Positions 4,302 to 14,887 of a stretch of 27,472 bases of DNA are shown here, piece after piece (positions within the stretch are counted from its first letter, which is position 1; each line of letters opens with the position of its first letter). The stretch spans positions 1 through 27,472 of the forward strand of contig JBEKLW010000001.1 in NCBI GenBank assembly GCA_050008815.1, read 5' to 3'. Source of the DNA: Bryobacteraceae bacterium. Lineage in GTDB: Bacteria; Acidobacteriota; Terriglobia; Bryobacterales; Bryobacteraceae. Under the pieces are notes generated by a model, which had not been told where the DNA came from, ran no database searches, and saw only the letters and a list, made by a program, of their open reading frames with translations. Both the position numbers and the translations under genes were made by a program.

Positions 4302-5570
4302 ATGCCACTTTTAGCCGCAGGCATCATGGCCGGCGGGAGCATCATCAGCGGCCTGATCGGATCGAGTTCCGCCAAGAGCGCCGCCAAGACCCAGGCCGCT
4401 GCCGGCCAAGCCGTGGCCGGCTCGATCAACCAGGCGACGGGCGGCGCCATCAATGCCGGCTATGCCGGCATTACGCAGGCCAACCAGGCGCTCAATCAGG
4501 GACTCTACGGCGCAAACCAGGCCATCGGCGCCGGAGTTCTGCAAGCCCAGGGAGCCATCTCCCCAGCCGTGCAGCAAGCGCAGCAAGCGGCGGCAGAGGG
4601 GATGCAAGGCGCGGGGCAGTATATCGCGGGCGGAGTACAGGGCGCAGGCCAGTACCTCACCGGAGCGCAACAGCAGCAGGCCGGAATCTACAACCAACTC
4701 ACCGGCGGCATTCAGCCCTATCAGCAAGCCGGCACGCAGGGCGTCCAGCAGCTTCAGAATTTCATGGCCCCTGGCGGCCAGGGCTCTCAGCAATTCTCGT
4801 TCAATCCGCAGAATCTTCAGAACACCCCCGGCTACCAGTTTCAGTTGCAGCAAGGCAACCAGGCGCTCCAATCCCAGGCCGCGGCTGCAGGAATGCTGCA
4901 ATCGGGCAGCAACCTCAAAGCCATCGAGAACTACTCGCAGGGTCTCGCCGGAACCACCTACAACAACGCCTACAACCAAGCGCTGCAAACCTACCAGACC
5001 AACTACGGCAACCAGCTTCAGGGTCTCTCCGCTCTGGCCAACTACGGCCAGAACGCCAACTCGCAAATGGTCAGCGCGGGCGGCAATTACGGCAACCAGG
5101 CCGGTCAAATTGCCGGACTCGGCACCAGCGCGCAGATGCAGGGCGCGAGCCTCGGGGCCCAGACGGCTATGCAAGGCGCGGGTCTCATCGGCGGCCAGGC
5201 CATGCAGGGCGCGGGCCTGTTGTCGAATACCTCGATGCAAGGCGCGCAGATGCTCTCCAACGCTCAGCTTGGCGTCGGGAGCCAGCTTGCCAACACCGCC
5301 ATGCAGGGCAACCAGTACATCGGCAATGTCGGACTGACAGGCGCGGAAGCCGCCGGCAACGCTTATTTGGGCGCGGCCAATGCCACCTCAGCCGGACAGA
5401 TTGGCTCGGGTAATGCCTGGCAGAATGCCATCGGCGGCGTGACCAACGCGGCGCAGATGTACGGGCTCAGTGCGATGCAGAACCCCTATGGTCTCTACGG
5501 TGGGGGAAGCTACAACCCTTACGCCGTTTCTGGTTACTCTCCGTACAGCGGTGAAGGGACCATGGGATAA
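4302..5570 (+). CDS. DNA transfer/ejection protein, P22 gp7-like (422 aa)
   Basis: Gly/Ala/Gln-rich with hydrophobic N-terminus GGSIISGLIGSSSAKSAAKTQ and core LQNTPGYQFQLQQGNQALQSQAAAAGMLQSGSNLKAIENYSQGLA typical of phage DNA-transfer proteins; synteny after the gp14-like gene. Confidence 0.8.
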   Translation: MPLLAAGIMAGGSIISGLIGSSSAKSAAKTQAAAGQAVAGSINQATGGAINAGYAGITQANQALNQGLYGANQAIGAGVLQAQGAISPAVQQAQQAAAEGMQGAGQYIAGGVQGAGQYLTGAQQQQAGIYNQLTGGIQPYQQAGTQGVQQLQNFMAPGGQGSQQFSFNPQNLQNTPGYQFQLQQGNQALQSQAAAAGMLQSGSNLKAIENYSQGLAGTTYNNAYNQALQTYQTNYGNQLQGLSALANYGQNANSQMVSAGGNYGNQAGQIAGLGTSAQMQGASLGAQTAMQGAGLIGGQAMQGAGLLSNTSMQGAQMLSNAQLGVGSQLANTAMQGNQYIGNVGLTGAEAAGNAYLGAANATSAGQIGSGNAWQNAIGGVTNAAQMYGLSAMQNPYGLYGGGSYNPYAVSGYSPYSGEGTMG

Positions 5571-7192: not shown

Positions 7193-10100
7193 ATGGCAGA
7201 CCAAGACCTCGGTGGCGGCTGGACCGTTGCCGGCGCAACACAATCCACACCACCCTCGCCCCCGCCCGCTCAAACTCAGCCACAGGACCTGGGCGGTGGC
7301 TGGACTGTGGCAGCCGCTCCGGCGCCTCCCGTCCGCGCTCCGGCCCCCTCGGTTCCTCCCCCTCCACCCTCCGCGGTATCACCTGATACCGGGGATCAAG
7401 ACCAAGACATTCAGGCCCCAGCTTCGGCCTACGCCCCTCCCACCCGTTATGGCCGCAATCAGCAGGGAAGTCTCGTCTCGAAGTGGAATGGATCGAACTG
7501 GGTAGATTTGTACAACGGCAAAAAGGTAGGAGCGCCGGCCAAAGAAGAATCGGGACCGCAGTACGGGCCAGGACAGGACTTTGCCGCGCAACCCCCCGCG
7601 GCTGGACAGCTAGGCCCCAGCCCAACGGGCGCCCCATCGCCGCAGATCCAGGAACGGGAGATCCCCCCTGCGCCACAGGCGCCCCCCATCCTCGGCATCT
7701 ACGCTCGCAAGCCAGGGACCCCGACATATGTTGGACCAGGGGGGCGAACCTACACGCCACCCCCGGAGGAAACCACCGCTCAAACCCTTCAGAAATTTCT
7801 ACTTTCGCCGCCGCCCTTCGTTCAGGACGCCGTGAAAGAGTTGAACCAGATTATGGTCGGCCCCTTCCAGATCATCCAGAAGGGCATCATCGAGCCTGCC
7901 GCCGGCATGATATCGCCCGCGGGGGCAGCGATGGCAGTCACCGGCGCCGGCTTGGGCGCGGCAGCGGCATCCTCAAGCGCGCAGATGGCGGCGGCAGGCA
8001 AAGCTGCGGATGCAGCCCTCTCGACGTTCTTCACGGGCTTACAGGCGCGCCAGATCACCAAAGAAGTTCCCGAGGCTTACGACGCCTACCAGAAAGGTGA
8101 CTACTGGGGCGCCCTGGGCGAGTTGGGCGCCGCCGGCACATCGGCATTTCTTGGAACGCTGGCGGGAATGCACGCCGCCGGGCAACTCAGTGATGTCGGC
8201 GCGCTGTCGGCAACGCGGCGCGCGCTCCAGGAACGGCTAAACGCCGAGGAAGCCTATCGCGCGGCAGGCGAGCGGGCCGACGCAGCCAGGGCCGCCGCAA
8301 ACAGACCAAGGCTGGCAGCCCCGGCACCGGAAGTCCCCGAAACGCCACCGGTCCCTGGCGAGCCACCGGCGCCAGCCCCCCTCCCGCCAGAAGCCGCCCC
8401 CACCGCTGTACCGACGCCCCCCGAAGCCCCGCCACCGCCCGCAGCCGCCGTGGACCTCGGCGAAGGCTGGCGCACCGCCGCTCCGCCGCGGGTGCCCCAA
8501 GAACCGGCTGCCGCCGCGCCGCCCGCTGTGTCTGTACCGCCGCCGACTATGGCCGCAGCACCACCTACCGCCGCCCCCGCCGCCGGCGCAGCCCAGAAGC
8601 CGGAAGGTCGCTCTGGCGAGGATTTGATTCGCGGCTCGACCAATATCCCCCTCTCCCCGCAAGGAGTCGAGCAAGCCAACCAAATCGGGCAGCGCTTCGC
8701 CCAGAAGGGCGGTTTGGACCTGGTGGTGAGTTCCGACATGGACCGAGCGGTTCAGACTGCGGCTCCGATTGCCCAAGCCAGCGGGGCCTATTTCAGCCAC
8801 GCCACTGAAGGTTTGCATCCCTGGTATCTGGGAGAGGTTGAGGGCCAGCCGACCGAAAAGGTCCTGGATCGCCTGAACGGCTTCATCGACGACTCGCCGG
8901 ATAAACCCGTGCCCGGCCGCAGCGAGGGATCCACACAGAACGGCGAAGCGTTCAACACCTTCAAAGAGCGGGCCATCGGAACGGTTCAGGATTTGATGGA
9001 CCAGTACGCTGAGGCTCAGGCAAACGACCAGCCCATCAAAATCGGAGCGGTCACGCACTACCGGGACGTGAAACTGCTCCACGCGTGGGCCGATGCGGGA
9101 TTTCCGGAGAACCTGGACAAGTTCCAACCTTCGAGCGATGAGATGACCGGCAAGGACGATCCGCCGGGCAGCGTCCAGCAAATTTCACAGGATGCCAAGG
9201 GCAAGTGGCAGATGCAGCCGGTCGATATGGCGAGCAACGCGGCGCTTCAGCCAGGAATCTACATCATCCGGCACAGCCCCACGGTCTATAACGCCGAAAA
9301 CCGCAACATCCCGGCGCCGCCGGTGGGTCAAATGCCCCAGGCTCAGACCCCGGTTCGAACCCCTCCTCCGGCTCCGGCTGTGGTTCAAACGCCACAGCCT
9401 GTCACCCCAATTGGCCGCACCTTACCTCCTCCTCAGCCCCCTGGAATCGTTCCTGCGCCTCCGCAGGGCCAAGGGGCCGAAATAGCGCCCGTGCGAACGC
9501 CCTCCGGTGCCACGGTCACACCAAATACGGTGTCAATGGAGCGCGCCGACTTCGAGCAGGAGCACACGGATCTGCCGAGGATTCTGCGCGAGGGCACACC
9601 AGCGGAGCGTGAGAAAGAAGCGGCGGAGCAGGCGCAGGAGTTGAAGGAAGTTCAGGCGGTGAACGCTCGGGAGCCTGGCTGGGTCGGCAACGTTCCAACC
9701 TCCGAAATCAAGGTAGATGCTCCGCGCTTCCAGTTCAAGGCCAACGTGGGCCAAGGGGGTGTCGGGGAAGAGTCGCGCGACATCACCCGGTGGGACCCGG
9801 AGAAGTCGGGTGTCCTGGCCGTATGGAAAGACCCCGCGGACGGCCAGACCTACGTGGTCAATGGCCATAATCGGCTGGACCTCGCCAGGCGTCTCAATGT
9901 CCCCGAGGCCACCGCCCGCTATTTGGTTGCCAACAACGCGCAGGAAGCGCGTCTCAAGGGCGCACTCATCAACATCGCCGAAGGTAGAGGCGAGGCCACC
10001 GACGCGGCCAAGATATTCCGCGATTCTCGCATGACTCCGGAGCAGTTGCGCGCCAACGGGGTCTCGCTCACGGGCAAGGTGGCCAGCGAAGGGCTGGCGC

Positions 10101-13100
10101 TTTCGAATCTCTCGCAGCCCATCTTCGACGACGTGATTAACGGAACCCTCCCAGTCGCCAGAGGGGCGGTGATCGGCGCCGGCGTCCCCAACCATGCGGA
10201 CCAGCAGGCGCTCTACGACCTGATGCGCCAGCGCGAGCAGGGTGGCAAGCGGCTCACCAACGACCAACTCGGTGAATTGATCCGCCTCAACCAGCGGACG
10301 TCGACCGTTACGGAGCGCCCCGAGGACGAGGTCCAGACCTCCATGTTCGGCGAGGAGGAGATGACGCGCTCGCTCCTTCCGGAGAAGGCCGAGATTTCCG
10401 ACTACGTTCGGAAGCAGTTGGCGGCCGAGAAGAAGCTGTTCGGAACCGTGGCTGCGGCCCCGGCTGCGGAGCGCCTCACGGAAGCCGGAAACATAGTACT
10501 GACCACCCAAAATGCCCAGATCGCGGAGCGCGCCAACCAGGGCATTCTGTTGTATGATCGACTCAGCACCTCGGTCGGTCCGATCGATTCGATTCTCGAT
10601 CAGTCGGCCAAGTCGCTGGCCGGTGGAGAAAGCGCCCATGAAGTCAAACAATCCGCCTACCGCCAAGTCCGCAACCTCCTCGCGGCCCAGGTCCGTAAAC
10701 TCACCGGAGTTCCGCAAGGACATGATCGAGGAGTTAAGGGACTGGGTGAACAAGGGCCACGCCAAGCTGGCCCCGGGGAATACGGTCAGCCGCTACAGTC
10801 CCGTGCAGTAGGTCCACTTCCAGGCCAGCAATCCTTCCTGGTTCCAGAAACCGAAGCCGAGTCTCGGGCCATCGCGCAGTTGAACGAGGCACGGCTGCTG
10901 CATGACCAACTCACCGCGCAGATCCGGTCGGGGATGGCGGCGAAACCAGGGAAGCTGAAGCCCGCGAAAACCCGCGATCTGTTCGCGGAGGAAGGACCGG
11001 AGCAAGGCGGTCTCTTCGCCCGCCGCCTCAAGACCACGCCCGACATGTTCCGCCGCGTGCCCGAGGTGACGCCTGGCGGCCGCGGCTTCTGGGTCTACCA
11101 GGGGAAAGTGATCGACGCCGGCACGGACTTACATGCCACGGTGGCGCAGCGGGCGCTCCCGGGGTCGCTCTTCCAGGAAGCCGTCGGCAAATTGATGGGC
11201 GAGGGCGCCATCCGCGTGCGTGGCGAAAACCTGGAAATGCACCAGCACGCGCTCGACTCCAGCAATCTGCAGCCGGCTGTCGAGCAGGCGGTCAAAGAAG
11301 CCCAGCGCAAGCGCGCGCGAGAAATCGGAGTAGAGGTGCGGACCAGCCCGGACCACGCGGATTACATGACCGTGCCGCTCCCAGAGGTGGGAGAGTTCCT
11401 GGCAAGTCCCCGGCGGTACATGGGGAATCGGGCAATCGCAGCCTTACAGGCGCGGCGTCGCGTCTCACCCGATCAACTCAACCTACTGCCAGGAATCACG
11501 CGATTGAAAGACGCCGGTCGCGAGGACGTGGAGCAGTACTGGGAGGCCGCGGATTCGAAGCCTACCAGTGTGGAACGTGTCCCGTGCCTCCTGGTGAACA
11601 ACGCCGCTATGGACGCAGTGTTGCGGAACATGGGGCCTACCGGCCGGAACGCCACTTCGGAAGCTACCCATGCGGTGGCTCTCAACCCGGCCGAACAGCG
11701 GTATATTCTGGCCGCAGCCAAGAGCCTCCGCGGTACGCAGCCGAATGCGTTCGAGAGAGCGCTACTCAAAATCGCTCGCCAGATTCGCACTATTAACCCC
11801 GGTGGCAGACCTCTGCCTGTGATCCAGACAGGGGCATCGATCACGGGTGAGAATCTGGCGCTGAACGTCCAGGAGGAGATCGACCACAGCAGGCAACTCG
11901 CTCTACACAGGGGCTTGTATGGTTTGCCGGTCGAGGTGGTCGAGACCCCATTAGGGGCTCGGTGCGCGATGGTGTTGGCGGAACGCGCCGGCTATGTCAC
12001 ACTAGACCCGCAATCGGCCTTCTACGAGCATAACCGGGCTGTCATTGCTGCGGAGATTGGTGTCCGCCTGATGCGCCCCGGGAGATATCATGAGATGGGC
12101 GTGACTGCCGATGAAGCCGAAGCCCTCGGCCAACAGTACATCCGCCATCTGAAGAAGCACCCCGGCGCGGCAGCCCGCGTCATACTGGAGCAAATCGATG
12201 CCACGATCAGGCAGAATCAACTTCTTTCTCTCTCCGAACGCAATCTCGCTCTGGAAGGGGGAGAGCCACTTCACCCTGAAAAGGCCATCGGACCCCCAGG
12301 AGTTGGAGGCGCTGTTTCGCCGACTTATCCAGGAGGACGGCCTGGAGGGCGAGGAGTTGGAGAGCGCGGTCCAGGAGATGATGAAGAAGGCGGCGGCGCT
12401 CCCTCAGCAGCAAGATCCGGGTACCAGCCGCAGCCCCTTGCCGCCCGAGCCCCCAAAGTAGGCGGAGGCGAATCCCGCCCGGTCCGTGAGTTTCTGGGTG
12501 AAGAGGCCGGGACCTCGCGCGTCGGGGAAATTCTGAAGGCCGACATCAAGGAGGCGCTGGCTCTCAAATCCAAGCGGGACGCCGCTATCCAAGTCCTCGA
12601 AGAGGCCAAAGCGGACCCGGCGGTCAAGGACCTGGCCGACCGGCTGGCATCGGCCTACCTGGCCGAACGGAACCTCTGGGCCACGCGGGTCAACCAAGTT
12701 ATAGGCCGTCTGCGCAAACTGGTGCCGAGTCCTGTGGACCAGGAAGGCATCGCCATCATGCGGGATATGTACGGCTGTCCAGGTGAACTGGAGCAGTGGG
12801 CTGCGGGCACGCATCCGAACCTCGCCACTCTTGATCCCGAGAAGCGCGCCGCGTTCACGCGGAACATCGACCGTCTGGGGCCGGCCATCGAACGAGCGCA
12901 GAATCCGACTCCGGAGATGATCCAGGCCGACCAGGTGCTGACCAAGATGGCGCGGGCCACCATGATGGAAGGTCAGATGCGCGGGATTATCGAGCGCGGC
13001 CTGACTCCCGAGCGGTACTTCACTCACCTTCTCTGGCCCAAAGGCGAAGGGGAAGCTCCCAAGCCCGCGTCACAGCGCATAGGCCAGATGCTGGGTGGCA

Positions 13101-14887
13101 AGATCAGCCGCTACTTCGCCTTCGCGGAGCACCGCTCCTACCCGACGATCTTCGACGCCATCGCCGACGGCGTGCGGCCGAAGACCCTGAACGCTTTCGA
13201 CGCCGCCACGATTCACGGGGACAAGTTCGCCACCGCGCGCGCGACGCGCATCCTCCAGGATGAGCTGGAGGAAAACCACATGGGAGTGTGGGGCGCGCCG
13301 CGAGCGCCTGGCATCCCGGAGAACTGGGTCGAGTTGGCGCCGCACGCCCGGCTCTTCCGTAACGAGATCCCGGTCACGGACCAGGAGGGAAAGCAGACCT
13401 TTGCGCTGCAAACCTTCTGGACGCCCCAAGTCGTGTCGGACGCTTTGCGACCGATCACCGACCCGGACTACATGCGCGTGATAAAAGGCTTCGGAAACCT
13501 GCGTGCCCGCCAGGCGCTTCTCAAGCAGGCGACGCTGAGCCTTTCACTGTTTCACGCGCGCGCCCTCAATTTGATGGCGTTCTACAATCTGGGACCGGTG
13601 GGAATCACGAAGGGGCTGCTCTGGTTTAAGCGCCTGGGAACCAGCATGGACAATCCCGACTTCGAGCGCGCCGAGCGCCAGTTCGTAATGGACGGCGGAA
13701 CCACGACGATGATGGGCAAGAGCGTCGAGGCATACAAGTCGCTGGAGCCGGGCTCCATTCCCACGTGGACCGACATCTGGAGGAGGGTGCCGGTGATCCG
13801 TGAAATGGATGCGGCGGCCAATACGGTCACCCGCGGCACCTTTGACATTCTGCAACGCTTTTGGAAGGTAACCGACTACCAGATCAAGCGGACGGCCTGG
13901 ATGGCGAAGCATCCCGGCGCCAGCCAGAGCGAATTATCGAAAGCCGGCGAGAGCATCGCCAAGGAAATCAACGCGGTCTACGGCGGCCTGAACTGGGAAA
14001 AACTCGGAGCGAATCACGCCACCGTGGAGGCGCTGCGCGCGATCATGTTGGCTCCCGACTGGACCATCTCCAACATCTTCAATGTGAAGTACGCTCTCGA
14101 AGGGACGGTGCCGGCCGGCCAGACCACCGTGGGCATGAAGGCACTCGGCGCTGGCGGACCGATGGGCACCGGCGCCCCTGAGTTCACCTCGGCCGGCAAA
14201 CGCGAGTGGACCCCGGCCGGGAAGGCGGCTCGCCTTTTCTGGATGCGCGCCGCGGCCTACATCGTCATCGGCTCGGAGTTGGCAAGCTTTGCCCTGACCC
14301 GCCGCTGGTCGAAACGGCCTACGCGGGTGCTCGTCGGAACGGACAAGGACGGCCGGGACGTTTACGAGAACTGGTTCGCCGCCGGAGCGCCCCAGGACGT
14401 CCAGTCCTTCATCGACAATTCCGCTCGTTACGGCGCTCTGGGCGGGGCGGTGCGAACCATGACGAACAAGGCGGCACCGCTTTTCCGCACCGGCCTCGAA
14501 GCCGCCAAGAACGAAGACTTCCTGGGGCGCCCGATCGTGCCCAGGGGCATGAACTTCTGGGCCGCCACGGCGCGCGGCGGAATCCACGCCGCCAAGGGCC
14601 TGGCGCCGATTCCCTACAGCTTCCAGAACGCCTGGAACATGCTGGCTGGGCCGGACAGGGATCGCTACAAGCCTGGAGAGGTTGCGGCTACGATACTGAC
14701 CGGGACCCCGCCGATCCACGTTCGGCCGCAACCGCCGGAGCGGCCGAAGCTCTCGACATGGGAGCAGATCAAACAGAATCGGGTCTACCAGAAGAAACCC
14801 GCCGCACTCCCGCCCCAACTCCGCCAGGCATTCCCCGCCCCTCCCCGTCTTCCTAAACTTCCCGGACAGCAGCAGCGCACGCGGTAA
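7193..14887 (+). CDS. Giant multidomain internal virion/ejection protein (gp16 position; polyvalent-protein-like; 2564 aa)
   Basis: Single 7.7-kb ORF with Pro-rich linkers, Ala/Gly hydrophobic segments (aa ~235-335), histidine phosphatase motifs (aa 476-703), a ParB-like VVNGHNRL motif (aa 888-895), a long helical C-terminal region and NEDFLGRPIVP near the C-terminus. Confidence 0.85.
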   Translation: MADQDLGGGWTVAGATQSTPPSPPPAQTQPQDLGGGWTVAAAPAPPVRAPAPSVPPPPPSAVSPDTGDQDQDIQAPASAYAPPTRYGRNQQGSLVSKWNGSNWVDLYNGKKVGAPAKEESGPQYGPGQDFAAQPPAAGQLGPSPTGAPSPQIQEREIPPAPQAPPILGIYARKPGTPTYVGPGGRTYTPPPEETTAQTLQKFLLSPPPFVQDAVKELNQIMVGPFQIIQKGIIEPAAGMISPAGAAMAVTGAGLGAAAASSSAQMAAAGKAADAALSTFFTGLQARQITKEVPEAYDAYQKGDYWGALGELGAAGTSAFLGTLAGMHAAGQLSDVGALSATRRALQERLNAEEAYRAAGERADAARAAANRPRLAAPAPEVPETPPVPGEPPAPAPLPPEAAPTAVPTPPEAPPPPAAAVDLGEGWRTAAPPRVPQEPAAAAPPAVSVPPPTMAAAPPTAAPAAGAAQKPEGRSGEDLIRGSTNIPLSPQGVEQANQIGQRFAQKGGLDLVVSSDMDRAVQTAAPIAQASGAYFSHATEGLHPWYLGEVEGQPTEKVLDRLNGFIDDSPDKPVPGRSEGSTQNGEAFNTFKERAIGTVQDLMDQYAEAQANDQPIKIGAVTHYRDVKLLHAWADAGFPENLDKFQPSSDEMTGKDDPPGSVQQISQDAKGKWQMQPVDMASNAALQPGIYIIRHSPTVYNAENRNIPAPPVGQMPQAQTPVRTPPPAPAVVQTPQPVTPIGRTLPPPQPPGIVPAPPQGQGAEIAPVRTPSGATVTPNTVSMERADFEQEHTDLPRILREGTPAEREKEAAEQAQELKEVQAVNAREPGWVGNVPTSEIKVDAPRFQFKANVGQGGVGEESRDITRWDPEKSGVLAVWKDPADGQTYVVNGHNRLDLARRLNVPEATARYLVANNAQEARLKGALINIAEGRGEATDAAKIFRDSRMTPEQLRANGVSLTGKVASEGLALSNLSQPIFDDVINGTLPVARGAVIGAGVPNHADQQALYDLMRQREQGGKRLTNDQLGELIRLNQRTSTVTERPEDEVQTSMFGEEEMTRSLLPEKAEISDYVRKQLAAEKKLFGTVAAAPAAERLTEAGNIVLTTQNAQIAERANQGILLYDRLSTSVGPIDSILDQSAKSLAGGESAHEVKQSAYRQVRNLLAAQVRKLTGVPQGHDRGVKGLGEQGPRQAGPGEYGQPLQSRAVGPLPGQQSFLVPETEAESRAIAQLNEARLLHDQLTAQIRSGMAAKPGKLKPAKTRDLFAEEGPEQGGLFARRLKTTPDMFRRVPEVTPGGRGFWVYQGKVIDAGTDLHATVAQRALPGSLFQEAVGKLMGEGAIRVRGENLEMHQHALDSSNLQPAVEQAVKEAQRKRAREIGVEVRTSPDHADYMTVPLPEVGEFLASPRRYMGNRAIAALQARRRVSPDQLNLLPGITRLKDAGREDVEQYWEAADSKPTSVERVPCLLVNNAAMDAVLRNMGPTGRNATSEATHAVALNPAEQRYILAAAKSLRGTQPNAFERALLKIARQIRTINPGGRPLPVIQTGASITGENLALNVQEEIDHSRQLALHRGLYGLPVEVVETPLGARCAMVLAERAGYVTLDPQSAFYEHNRAVIAAEIGVRLMRPGRYHEMGVTADEAEALGQQYIRHLKKHPGAAARVILEQIDATIRQNQLLSLSERNLALEGGEPLHPEKAIGPPGVGGAVSPTYPGGRPGGRGVGERGPGDDEEGGGAPSAARSGYQPQPLAARAPKVGGGESRPVREFLGEEAGTSRVGEILKADIKEALALKSKRDAAIQVLEEAKADPAVKDLADRLASAYLAERNLWATRVNQVIGRLRKLVPSPVDQEGIAIMRDMYGCPGELEQWAAGTHPNLATLDPEKRAAFTRNIDRLGPAIERAQNPTPEMIQADQVLTKMARATMMEGQMRGIIERGLTPERYFTHLLWPKGEGEAPKPASQRIGQMLGGKISRYFAFAEHRSYPTIFDAIADGVRPKTLNAFDAATIHGDKFATARATRILQDELEENHMGVWGAPRAPGIPENWVELAPHARLFRNEIPVTDQEGKQTFALQTFWTPQVVSDALRPITDPDYMRVIKGFGNLRARQALLKQATLSLSLFHARALNLMAFYNLGPVGITKGLLWFKRLGTSMDNPDFERAERQFVMDGGTTTMMGKSVEAYKSLEPGSIPTWTDIWRRVPVIREMDAAANTVTRGTFDILQRFWKVTDYQIKRTAWMAKHPGASQSELSKAGESIAKEINAVYGGLNWEKLGANHATVEALRAIMLAPDWTISNIFNVKYALEGTVPAGQTTVGMKALGAGGPMGTGAPEFTSAGKREWTPAGKAARLFWMRAAAYIVIGSELASFALTRRWSKRPTRVLVGTDKDGRDVYENWFAAGAPQDVQSFIDNSARYGALGGAVRTMTNKAAPLFRTGLEAAKNEDFLGRPIVPRGMNFWAATARGGIHAAKGLAPIPYSFQNAWNMLAGPDRDRYKPGEVAATILTGTPPIHVRPQPPERPKLSTWEQIKQNRVYQKKPAALPPQLRQAFPAPPRLPKLPGQQQRTR
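8618..9301 (+). other. Histidine phosphatase (phosphoglycerate mutase-like) domain, circularly permuted, within the giant ORF
   Basis: DLIRGSTNIPLSPQGVEQA, LDLVVSSDMDRAVQTA, HPWYLGEVEG, GEAFNTFKERA and IGAVTHYRDV occur in canonical order; the normally N-terminal IYIIRHSPTVYNAE comes last (9257-9298). Confidence 0.8.
9680..10230 (+). other. ParB/Srx-like domain within the giant ORF
   Basis: VPTSEIKVDAPRFQFK...GVLAVWKDPADGQTYVVNGHNRLDLARRLNVPE matches the ParB N-terminal pattern ending in hhxGHxRhxxA. Confidence 0.7.
14330..14720 (+). other. Possible LPD38-like C-terminal domain of the giant ORF
   Basis: NKAAPLFRTGLEAAKNEDFLGRPIVP resembles the N-x-D-F-x-G-R-P-I motif recalled from C-termini of large phage internal proteins. 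Confidence 0.4.

Follow-up and report, generated by a model that had tools for sequence, protein, structure and literature searches.

How can a histidine phosphatase domain that seems to lack its catalytic nucleophile nonetheless be complete? This question is raised by a protein of 2564 amino acids (aa) encoded on contig JBEKLW010000001.1 of a Bryobacteraceae bacterium (assembly GCA_050008815.1); the whole contig, 27,472 nucleotides (nt) long, was analysed and is referred to here as the window. When the entire protein (P0001) is scanned, His_Phos_1 is the sole Pfam family above cut-off (75.6 bits, cut-off 21.7), and the match covers aa 477-645 only, corresponding to positions 15-170 of the 194 in the profile. 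To our knowledge, the histidine phosphatase nucleophile has always been described at the N-terminal strand. An earlier note, made by reading the sequence, had proposed that in this protein the first strand lies instead at the C-terminal end of the domain, making it a natural circular permutant. Our analysis makes this probable: taken as a whole, the observations are best explained if aa 476-703 form a branch-1 histidine phosphatase of the phosphoglycerate mutase (PGM)/PhoE/CobC type whose chain is circularly permuted. The gene and the elements of the domain are as follows.

7193..14887, forward strand: uninterrupted giant open reading frame (ORF) of polyvalent type (P0001), 2564 aa, carrying the phosphatase domain.
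8618..9301, forward strand: His_Phos_1 domain, aa 476-703, probably circularly permuted.
8621..8677, forward strand: proposed new N-terminus of the domain, D477-x-I-R480-G481...P-L...G491; aa 477-495 read DLIRGSTNIPLSPQGVEQA.
8744..8746, forward strand: R518, second Arg of the phosphate pocket, within SSDMDRAVQTA (aa 513-523).
9056..9058, forward strand: H622, second His, in a T-H-x-R motif within AVTHY (aa 619-623); R624 follows at 9062-9064.
9173..9253, forward strand: beta hairpin (aa 661-666 and 672-676), then an 11-residue connector (aa 677-687).
9254..9292, forward strand: putatively relocated first strand and nucleophile motif, G688-IYII-R693-H694-S-P-T697-V-Y-N700.

In enzymes of normal order, the D-x-I-R-G...PL element comes behind the RHG strand. 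Here, the region around aa 477 aligns to the His_Phos_1 profile from position 15 and to the 5zkk chain from residue 20, and the only candidate for the RHG strand, IYIIRHSPTVYNAE (aa 689-702, nt 9257-9298, with R693-H694 at nt 9269-9274), begins about 45 residues past the end of the Pfam match. The usual linear order, in which the nucleophile strand comes first and the second His late, is therefore reversed. No other RH dipeptide occurs in aa 1-800 of the ORF, which bears out the earlier observation that the motif is missing upstream of aa 477; the positions that had been assigned to the motifs (aa 477-495, R518, H622 and R693/H694) are likewise all correct. The pattern RH[GSA].T..N arises in 8 of 3000 shuffles of the protein, and in 0 of 3000 when a hydrophobic strand is placed in front of it. 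If E702 is joined directly to D477, the Gly in I-R-G lies 13 residues after the nucleophile His. This spacing equals that of the solved phosphoserine phosphatase of E. histolytica (H9 to G22 in the 5zkk alignment; 'H9A' appears in the title of 5zr2), so that the proposed end-to-start junction does have canonical spacing.

A Pfam scan of aa 670-715 alone gave no match even at E 10. Because this piece is too short for such a scan, we used a custom hidden Markov model (HMM), made from the 17 closest normal-order relatives, all of which came from the same search for relatives (an example sequence is VVLIRHGATALNKSKGHDRIRGWLNVALSD). The native sequence matches this model in two pieces, with nodes 19-196 first (178.3 bits) and nodes 3-18 after them, at aa 688-703. 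When aa 685-703 are placed ahead of aa 475-684, the re-joined sequence gives a single match to nodes 3-196 of 197.7 bits, interrupted by a gap of one residue where the two parts meet. The search with a re-permuted sequence that had been suggested as a check thus yields 198 bits as one piece versus 178 for the native order, and the two matches locate the cut point where it had been predicted, in the loop after RHx-T-x-x-N and before D-x-I-R-G. The isolated domain scores 83.1 bits against His_Phos_1, and NCBIfam models begin at their own positions 17-23 on the permuted proteins versus 1-3 on a normal-order relative.

Structure prediction leads to a similar picture. With aa 468-712 and a 119-sequence alignment as input, AlphaFold2 produced a model with a mean predicted local distance difference test (pLDDT) value of 94.9 and a predicted template modelling (pTM) score of 0.91; its edges are less confident (pLDDT 68 for the first 10 residues, 63 for the last block). 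Six strands are present, including aa 688-693 (model strand 221-226, block pLDDT ~98), and six strands make up the canonical central sheet of the histidine phosphatase superfamily (PMC12051542). The model shows the usual six-stranded alpha/beta/alpha sandwich, in which the relocated strand is predicted to lie between the second and fourth strands; the C-terminal segment would thus complete the central sheet, as the earlier note had anticipated. The hairpin and connector (hairpin strands 194-199 and 205-209 of the model, assigned by DSSP) bridge the old C-terminus to the old N-terminus, and the alignment of normal-order relatives runs to about aa 671 and then stops. The top matches of a Foldseek search against the PDB are all branch-1 histidine phosphatases. 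In these structural alignments, only the first ~15 residues of the solved chains (strand one and the RHG) and the last ~30 of the model are unpaired; an aligner bound to sequence order leaves exactly such ends when given a permutant. Structural superposition of the core is canonical, with the slot of the first strand left free.

The sequences of the family also carry a signal for this placement of the strand. We calculated corrected mutual information over 134 non-identical permuted sequences, covering 28441 residue pairs, and the pairs 508-618, 618-692 and 508-692 ranked 1, 2 and 4. L508 is in the second strand, G618 in the fourth and I692 in the C-terminal, formerly first, strand. The three positions compensate in volume: L/G/I is the commonest combination, and a large residue 618 goes with F/L/A or V/L/A. 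Similar combinations are found at the equivalent positions of normal-order relatives, where the third residue comes from the N-terminal strand.

An exhaustive search of 1.84 billion representatives returned 1204 proteins at E<=1e-3, and we inspected the best 150 clusters. Among these, 128 span the whole permuted domain, from about query residue 12 to 238, with its elements in the same order; they end in G-[IV]-Y-x-x-R-H-G-x-T-x-W-N, and an RH strand within the 60 residues upstream of the domain was found in none of them. RHG is present in 88/128, which makes the RHS of the window protein a minority variant. The members differ greatly in size. Small proteins (<=300 aa) account for 57 of the 128, including 33 in which the domain is the entire protein, starting at Met (such solo proteins are ~220 aa long), and 43 exceed 800 aa, reaching 5366 aa. 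The only near full-length relative of the window protein (P0003, 2887 aa) is 40% identical over the domain, which ends in GIYFIRHGMTAWNGE. Mean identity among permuted sequences is 32%; a word-indexed search among proteins of comparable length picked up a single relative. Likewise, a scan of IMG/VR with the single protein as query found no relatives, and a scan with an 11-sequence alignment found them on 107 viral contigs. The 80 contigs kept carry 63 normal-order and 14-17 permuted genes, and both orders occur as solo genes and within ORFs of 1000-3700 codons. The merging of the swapped HMM matches, the six-strand model, the covariation and the 40%-identical P0003 all agree with a natural circular permutant.

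An assembly or gene-calling artefact was considered as the cause of the swapped order and excluded, as the same order is found in 128 clusters from independent sources.

Two other members of the family deserve description. At L004:7908-8657, a gene for a solo permuted phosphatase of 249 aa has a portal gene (phrog_1216) on one side and a virion structural gene (phrog_1645) on the other; the slot between portal and structural genes is the usual place of genes for minor head or cargo proteins. In P0084 (1989 aa), the permuted domain (residues 639-1090) is split: the core ends near residue 833, and the last hairpin strand and the RH strand (GIYVTRHAETAWN) follow only beyond an insertion of ~200 residues. 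A direct repeat of ~30 residues (…LQRPTGMELQRTHAQLG.EG.GGLM.R…) stands ahead of the domain and again ahead of its final piece.

A tree of the shared core groups all permuted sequences in a single clade with 140 tips, of which the classifier had mislabelled one; the outgroup is the only canonical His_Phos_1 gene of the host. A single origin of the permutation is likely from this tree, and judged from the sequences compared, the permutation has been inherited throughout a large phage clade and is not particular to the window protein. A single event among normal-order phage histidine phosphatases with the RPW and THxR signatures is its probable origin.

Several points weigh against the interpretation developed so far. 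Local support for the permuted clade is 0.43, and the outgroup aligns over ~60 residues only, so the direction from normal order to permuted order is only weakly rooted. The AlphaFold model and the covariation share one family alignment as their basis, and the presumed proximity of R693/H694 to R518/H622 is judged from model topology, the superposed core and covariation, not from measured distances. The canonical Glu acid is absent (Pro543 is in its place) and RHG has become RHS; moreover, pocket residues are gone, yet the fold is retained, in a sub-clade of 16-18 sequences (S480/L693/D700/H658). Finally, the context for packaging and injection in the window consists only of a neighbour of a 'DNA ejection' family and an upstream lectin-fold protein.

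The first question that these points raise is whether the domain is an enzyme, and two further residues bear on it.

8819..8821, forward strand: P543, which takes the place of the canonical Glu proton donor in a HMMER alignment to 5zkk.
8840..8842, forward strand: E550, conserved in 132/134 permuted sequences (99%), with A, T, Q or S in 64 normal-order relatives.

The R-H nucleophile pair is present at the end of the first strand (R693-H694-S695 after strand 688-693), as are the second Arg, the second His and the pocket Asn (R518, H622 and N700), which we take to be the counterparts of R58, H149 and N15 of the Aquifex enzyme. Conservation was counted in 134 (or 119) permuted sequences and in 64 normal-order relatives. 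R518 is found in 119/119 permuted and 64/64 normal-order sequences, and is invariant over the 134 as well. H694 (134/134) is equally uniform among permuted sequences and T697 (133/134) nearly so, followed by H622 (117/134, or 87-89%; 64/64 in normal order), R693 (112/134, 84%) and N700 (102/134, 76-80%). Ser replaces the Gly of RHG in 16/134, and as S695 in the window protein. At the new N-terminus, G481 is conserved in 98% of 134 and G491 in 100% of 119 permuted sequences, and at position 477 Asp is found in 86% of normal-order relatives, and 68% of the permuted sequences have either Asp or Glu there. R480 and R624 are kept in 79% and 78% of permuted sequences, respectively, and each in 97% of normal-order ones. 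The Arg-His/Arg/His quartet is treated as the invariant core of the superfamily (PMC12051542).

The Glu proton donor expected after the third strand (E82/E83/E89) is missing. Where 5zkk reads 'mkEipfGtwEG', the window protein reads 'lhPwylGevEG', and the normal-order consensus is RPWnlG; Pro occupies the donor position in 64% of permuted and 94% of normal-order sequences, and Glu in 0/134 and 0/64. The catalytic set had been described in the earlier note as intact, which is correct for the quartet and the Asn and incorrect for the canonical acid. The proton donor differs between families of the superfamily (PMC12051542), and Pro543 is therefore no bar to membership; since Pro is also found at this position in the normal-order relatives, it does not reflect decay of the window protein. 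Judging by the residues retained, activity is plausible, and the conservation pattern of E550 suggests that this residue may have a role linked to the permutation.

The Pro543 and RHS substitutions could also be read as signs of a pseudo-enzyme, that is, a permuted fold that binds phosphate or another ligand without turnover, and the altered sub-clade, which has kept the fold without R693, N700 and R480, adds to this. In that sub-clade the domain starts KRISGSS and ends ILHSLTDDDTD, and R480->S, R693->L, N700->D and P658->H change together while H694 is kept; it may have become inactive or may follow a different chemistry. Its members include P0072, P0074, P0085, P0094-P0096, P0100 and P0102. 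The window protein, however, belongs to the main group, which keeps P658 and the full R480/R693/N700 set. R518 and H694 are invariant, T697 is 99% conserved and R693, H622 and N700 are retained at 76-87% despite the low mean identity of the family; Pro is at the donor position in nearly all normal-order relatives, whose R/H/R/H/N set is essentially invariant, and the donor varies across the superfamily in any case. We therefore regard a domain that has lost turnover as unlikely.

If the permuted domain is an active phosphatase, its mechanism can be sketched. The domain would begin at D-x-I-R-G...PL and hold its nucleophile, H694, seven to nine residues from its end. H694 would attack a phosphate ester or phosphoramidate to give a phospho-histidine intermediate, with the phosphate presumably held by R693, R518, H622 and N700. 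The proton donor would not be the canonical Glu; candidates are D477, in D-x-I-R-G, and E550. The pair R480 and R624 suggests a substrate with more than one negative group. No curated family among NCBIfam-type models reached the threshold at which it would name a substrate; phrog_12933 carries no functional annotation, and the source annotations of members say only 'PhoE'. The phosphohistidine phosphatase SixA (1UJC) is the minimal core of the superfamily and shows that proteins (phospho-His) can serve as substrates. It shares the superfamily core with the window domain, in normal order and without the insertions of the window domain, and its match is sub-threshold (19.8 bits versus a cut-off of 74.5).

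A possible, and at this stage tentative, extension is that the permuted clade and its normal-order sisters are phage effector phosphatases, delivered at or just after DNA entry, that would use a non-canonical acid to dephosphorylate a host immune signal or phosphoprotein. Such an effector would combine an arginine-rich pocket with D477, on the cut loop, or E550 as acid, and its targets might include a nucleotide second messenger or a phospho-His/Ser/Thr relay. If this holds, the family would represent a new class of enzyme for early counter-defence; a literature search for phage histidine phosphatases in defence found nothing relevant. The target of the phosphatase could reveal a host process that is switched off in the first moments of infection.

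Polyvalent proteins are giant, multi-domain proteins encoded among late or virion genes of phages (Iyer, Burroughs, Anand, de Souza, Aravind 2017, PMC5512222). Prediction places them in the virion, from which they would enter the cell along with the DNA (PMC5512222). The window protein is likewise giant and multi-domain and contains a weak LPD38 match; P1 DarB-like proteins are an example of the class. Domains that are typical of polyvalent proteins accompany the permuted domain in its giant carriers: SNF2 helicase, Eco57I-type (N6A) methylase, Sno (Strawberry-notch)-type helicase and ART-PolyVal. By analogy, the permuted carriers would be packaged in the virion, injected with the DNA and active on the host early in infection, and the window protein is likely a virion protein. 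The terms 'phosphatase', 'phosphoglycerate mutase' and 'PGAM' are absent from the main text of PMC5512222, and the histidine phosphatase module, in either chain order, thus appears to be unlisted in the polyvalent repertoire, to which it would be an addition. In P0003, residues 771-889 (L003), directly before the phosphatase, have a weak ART-PolyVal match (20.4 bits versus 31.2 for the Pfam threshold).

The earlier note had further supposed that the permutation is an adaptation to a giant ejected protein, either easing its threading or making folding wait for full translocation. The geometry would suit this, as the domain begins and ends in one and the same loop, with Pro-rich linkers on both sides, and the nucleophile strand would emerge last in an N-to-C passage. 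However, normal-order relatives occur in equally large proteins (2088, 2577, 3357 and 1899 aa; the first three are P0145, P0148 and L018), and the permuted form is a whole small protein in at least 33 cases. With both orders in both settings, order does not track protein size, and this part of the earlier proposal is not supported; we consider an adaptive link to threading very unlikely. That the IYIIRHS segment is merely the stub of a second, truncated tandem copy, behind a first copy without nucleophile, is hardly credible even though permutation by duplication goes through such intermediates and the short segment alone scores only 5 bits against the normal-order HMM, as the segment is modelled as a strand of the six-strand sheet with pLDDT ~98, I692 covaries with core residues of two adjacent strands, H694 is invariant in 134 sequences, solo proteins terminate right behind the motif and tandem double-core proteins, the expected duplication intermediates, were absent from the sample examined.

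Circular permutation of a branch-1 phosphatase thus remains the preferred explanation, and it apparently defines a real, large and undescribed clade of a well-known enzyme fold. A literature search for circularly permuted histidine phosphatases or phosphoglycerate mutases found nothing. Similarly, no model of the permuted topology was found in the PDB, the AlphaFold DB clusters, BFVD or the ESM Atlas: all matches are normal-order enzymes, with a best TM-score, normalized by query, of 0.66. For protein evolution, the clade offers a clean natural case of circular permutation in which the closest normal-order relatives are available for comparisons of folding and catalysis. For annotation, it means that databases truncate the match, and that a domain seemingly without a nucleophile is complete. 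For phage biology, a phosphatase joins the modules known from giant polyvalent proteins, which presumably enter the cell with the phage DNA.

We compared the domain with two sets of enzymes. The first comprises solved branch-1 enzymes: iPSP1 of Hydrogenobacter thermophilus (4IJ5/4IJ6), PhoE of Geobacillus stearothermophilus (1H2E/1EBB), the E. histolytica phosphoserine phosphatase (5ZKK/5ZR2), CobC and dPGM. The window domain is 17-23% identical to these, and differs from them in that its nucleophile strand is encoded last, Pro is at the Glu position and R480 and R624 are additional conserved residues. The second comprises normal-order phage relatives (P0111, P0115, P0145 and P0148; partly phrog_12933), which are 30-45% identical to the window domain and share with it D-x-I-R-G-w-x-v-PL, R-P-W-x-L-G, G-E-S-F-x-x-F and T-H-y-R. 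These occur in phages both as solo proteins and inside giant proteins; in contrast to the window domain, their RHG strand comes first and E550 is not conserved.

The remaining parts of the giant protein, and the neighbouring gene of most interest, are as follows.

8303..8614, forward strand: Pro/Ala-rich linker preceding the phosphatase domain, aa 371-474, seen in the translation.
9302..9502, forward strand: Pro-rich linker behind the phosphatase domain, aa 704-770, seen in the translation.
9662..10618, forward strand: next module, aa 824-1142, at first read as ParB-like.
12533..14785, forward strand: C-terminal module of ~750 aa, aa 1781-2531, common to other giant carriers of the permuted phosphatase.
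4302..5570, forward strand: neighbouring gene of a phage 'DNA ejection' family (phrog_598, E 3.6e-14).

Several unrelated domains are therefore joined in one chain of 2564 aa: the phosphatase, a phrog_21 add-on module and the shared 750-aa module. Residues 824-1142 align with the add-on region at the C-terminal end of phrog_21 (positions 1011-1325 of the 1362 in its profile, E 5.5e-64) and are 48% identical to part of P0104. The C-terminal module has 36-46% BLASTP identity to P0055, P0136, P0037 and P0099, and the weak LPD38 match, near aa 2425, is the only family assignment within it. In P0099, a module of this type precedes the phosphatase, whereas in the window protein it comes after; this difference in order indicates that the phosphatase moves as a module, and after its origin the permuted phosphatase would have been shuffled as such among polyvalent proteins. 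Other genes upstream of the ORF match a GNAT/head-morphogenesis family and a protein with a lectin fold. Genes for capsid, portal or terminase were not identified within the window.

The window is one whole contig of a host genome bin (G000) that is 77% complete and consists of 549 contigs, and the link between window and host is based on binning only. This bin contains one further His_Phos_1 match, on contig C535:315-833 (L082), and its elements are in normal order.

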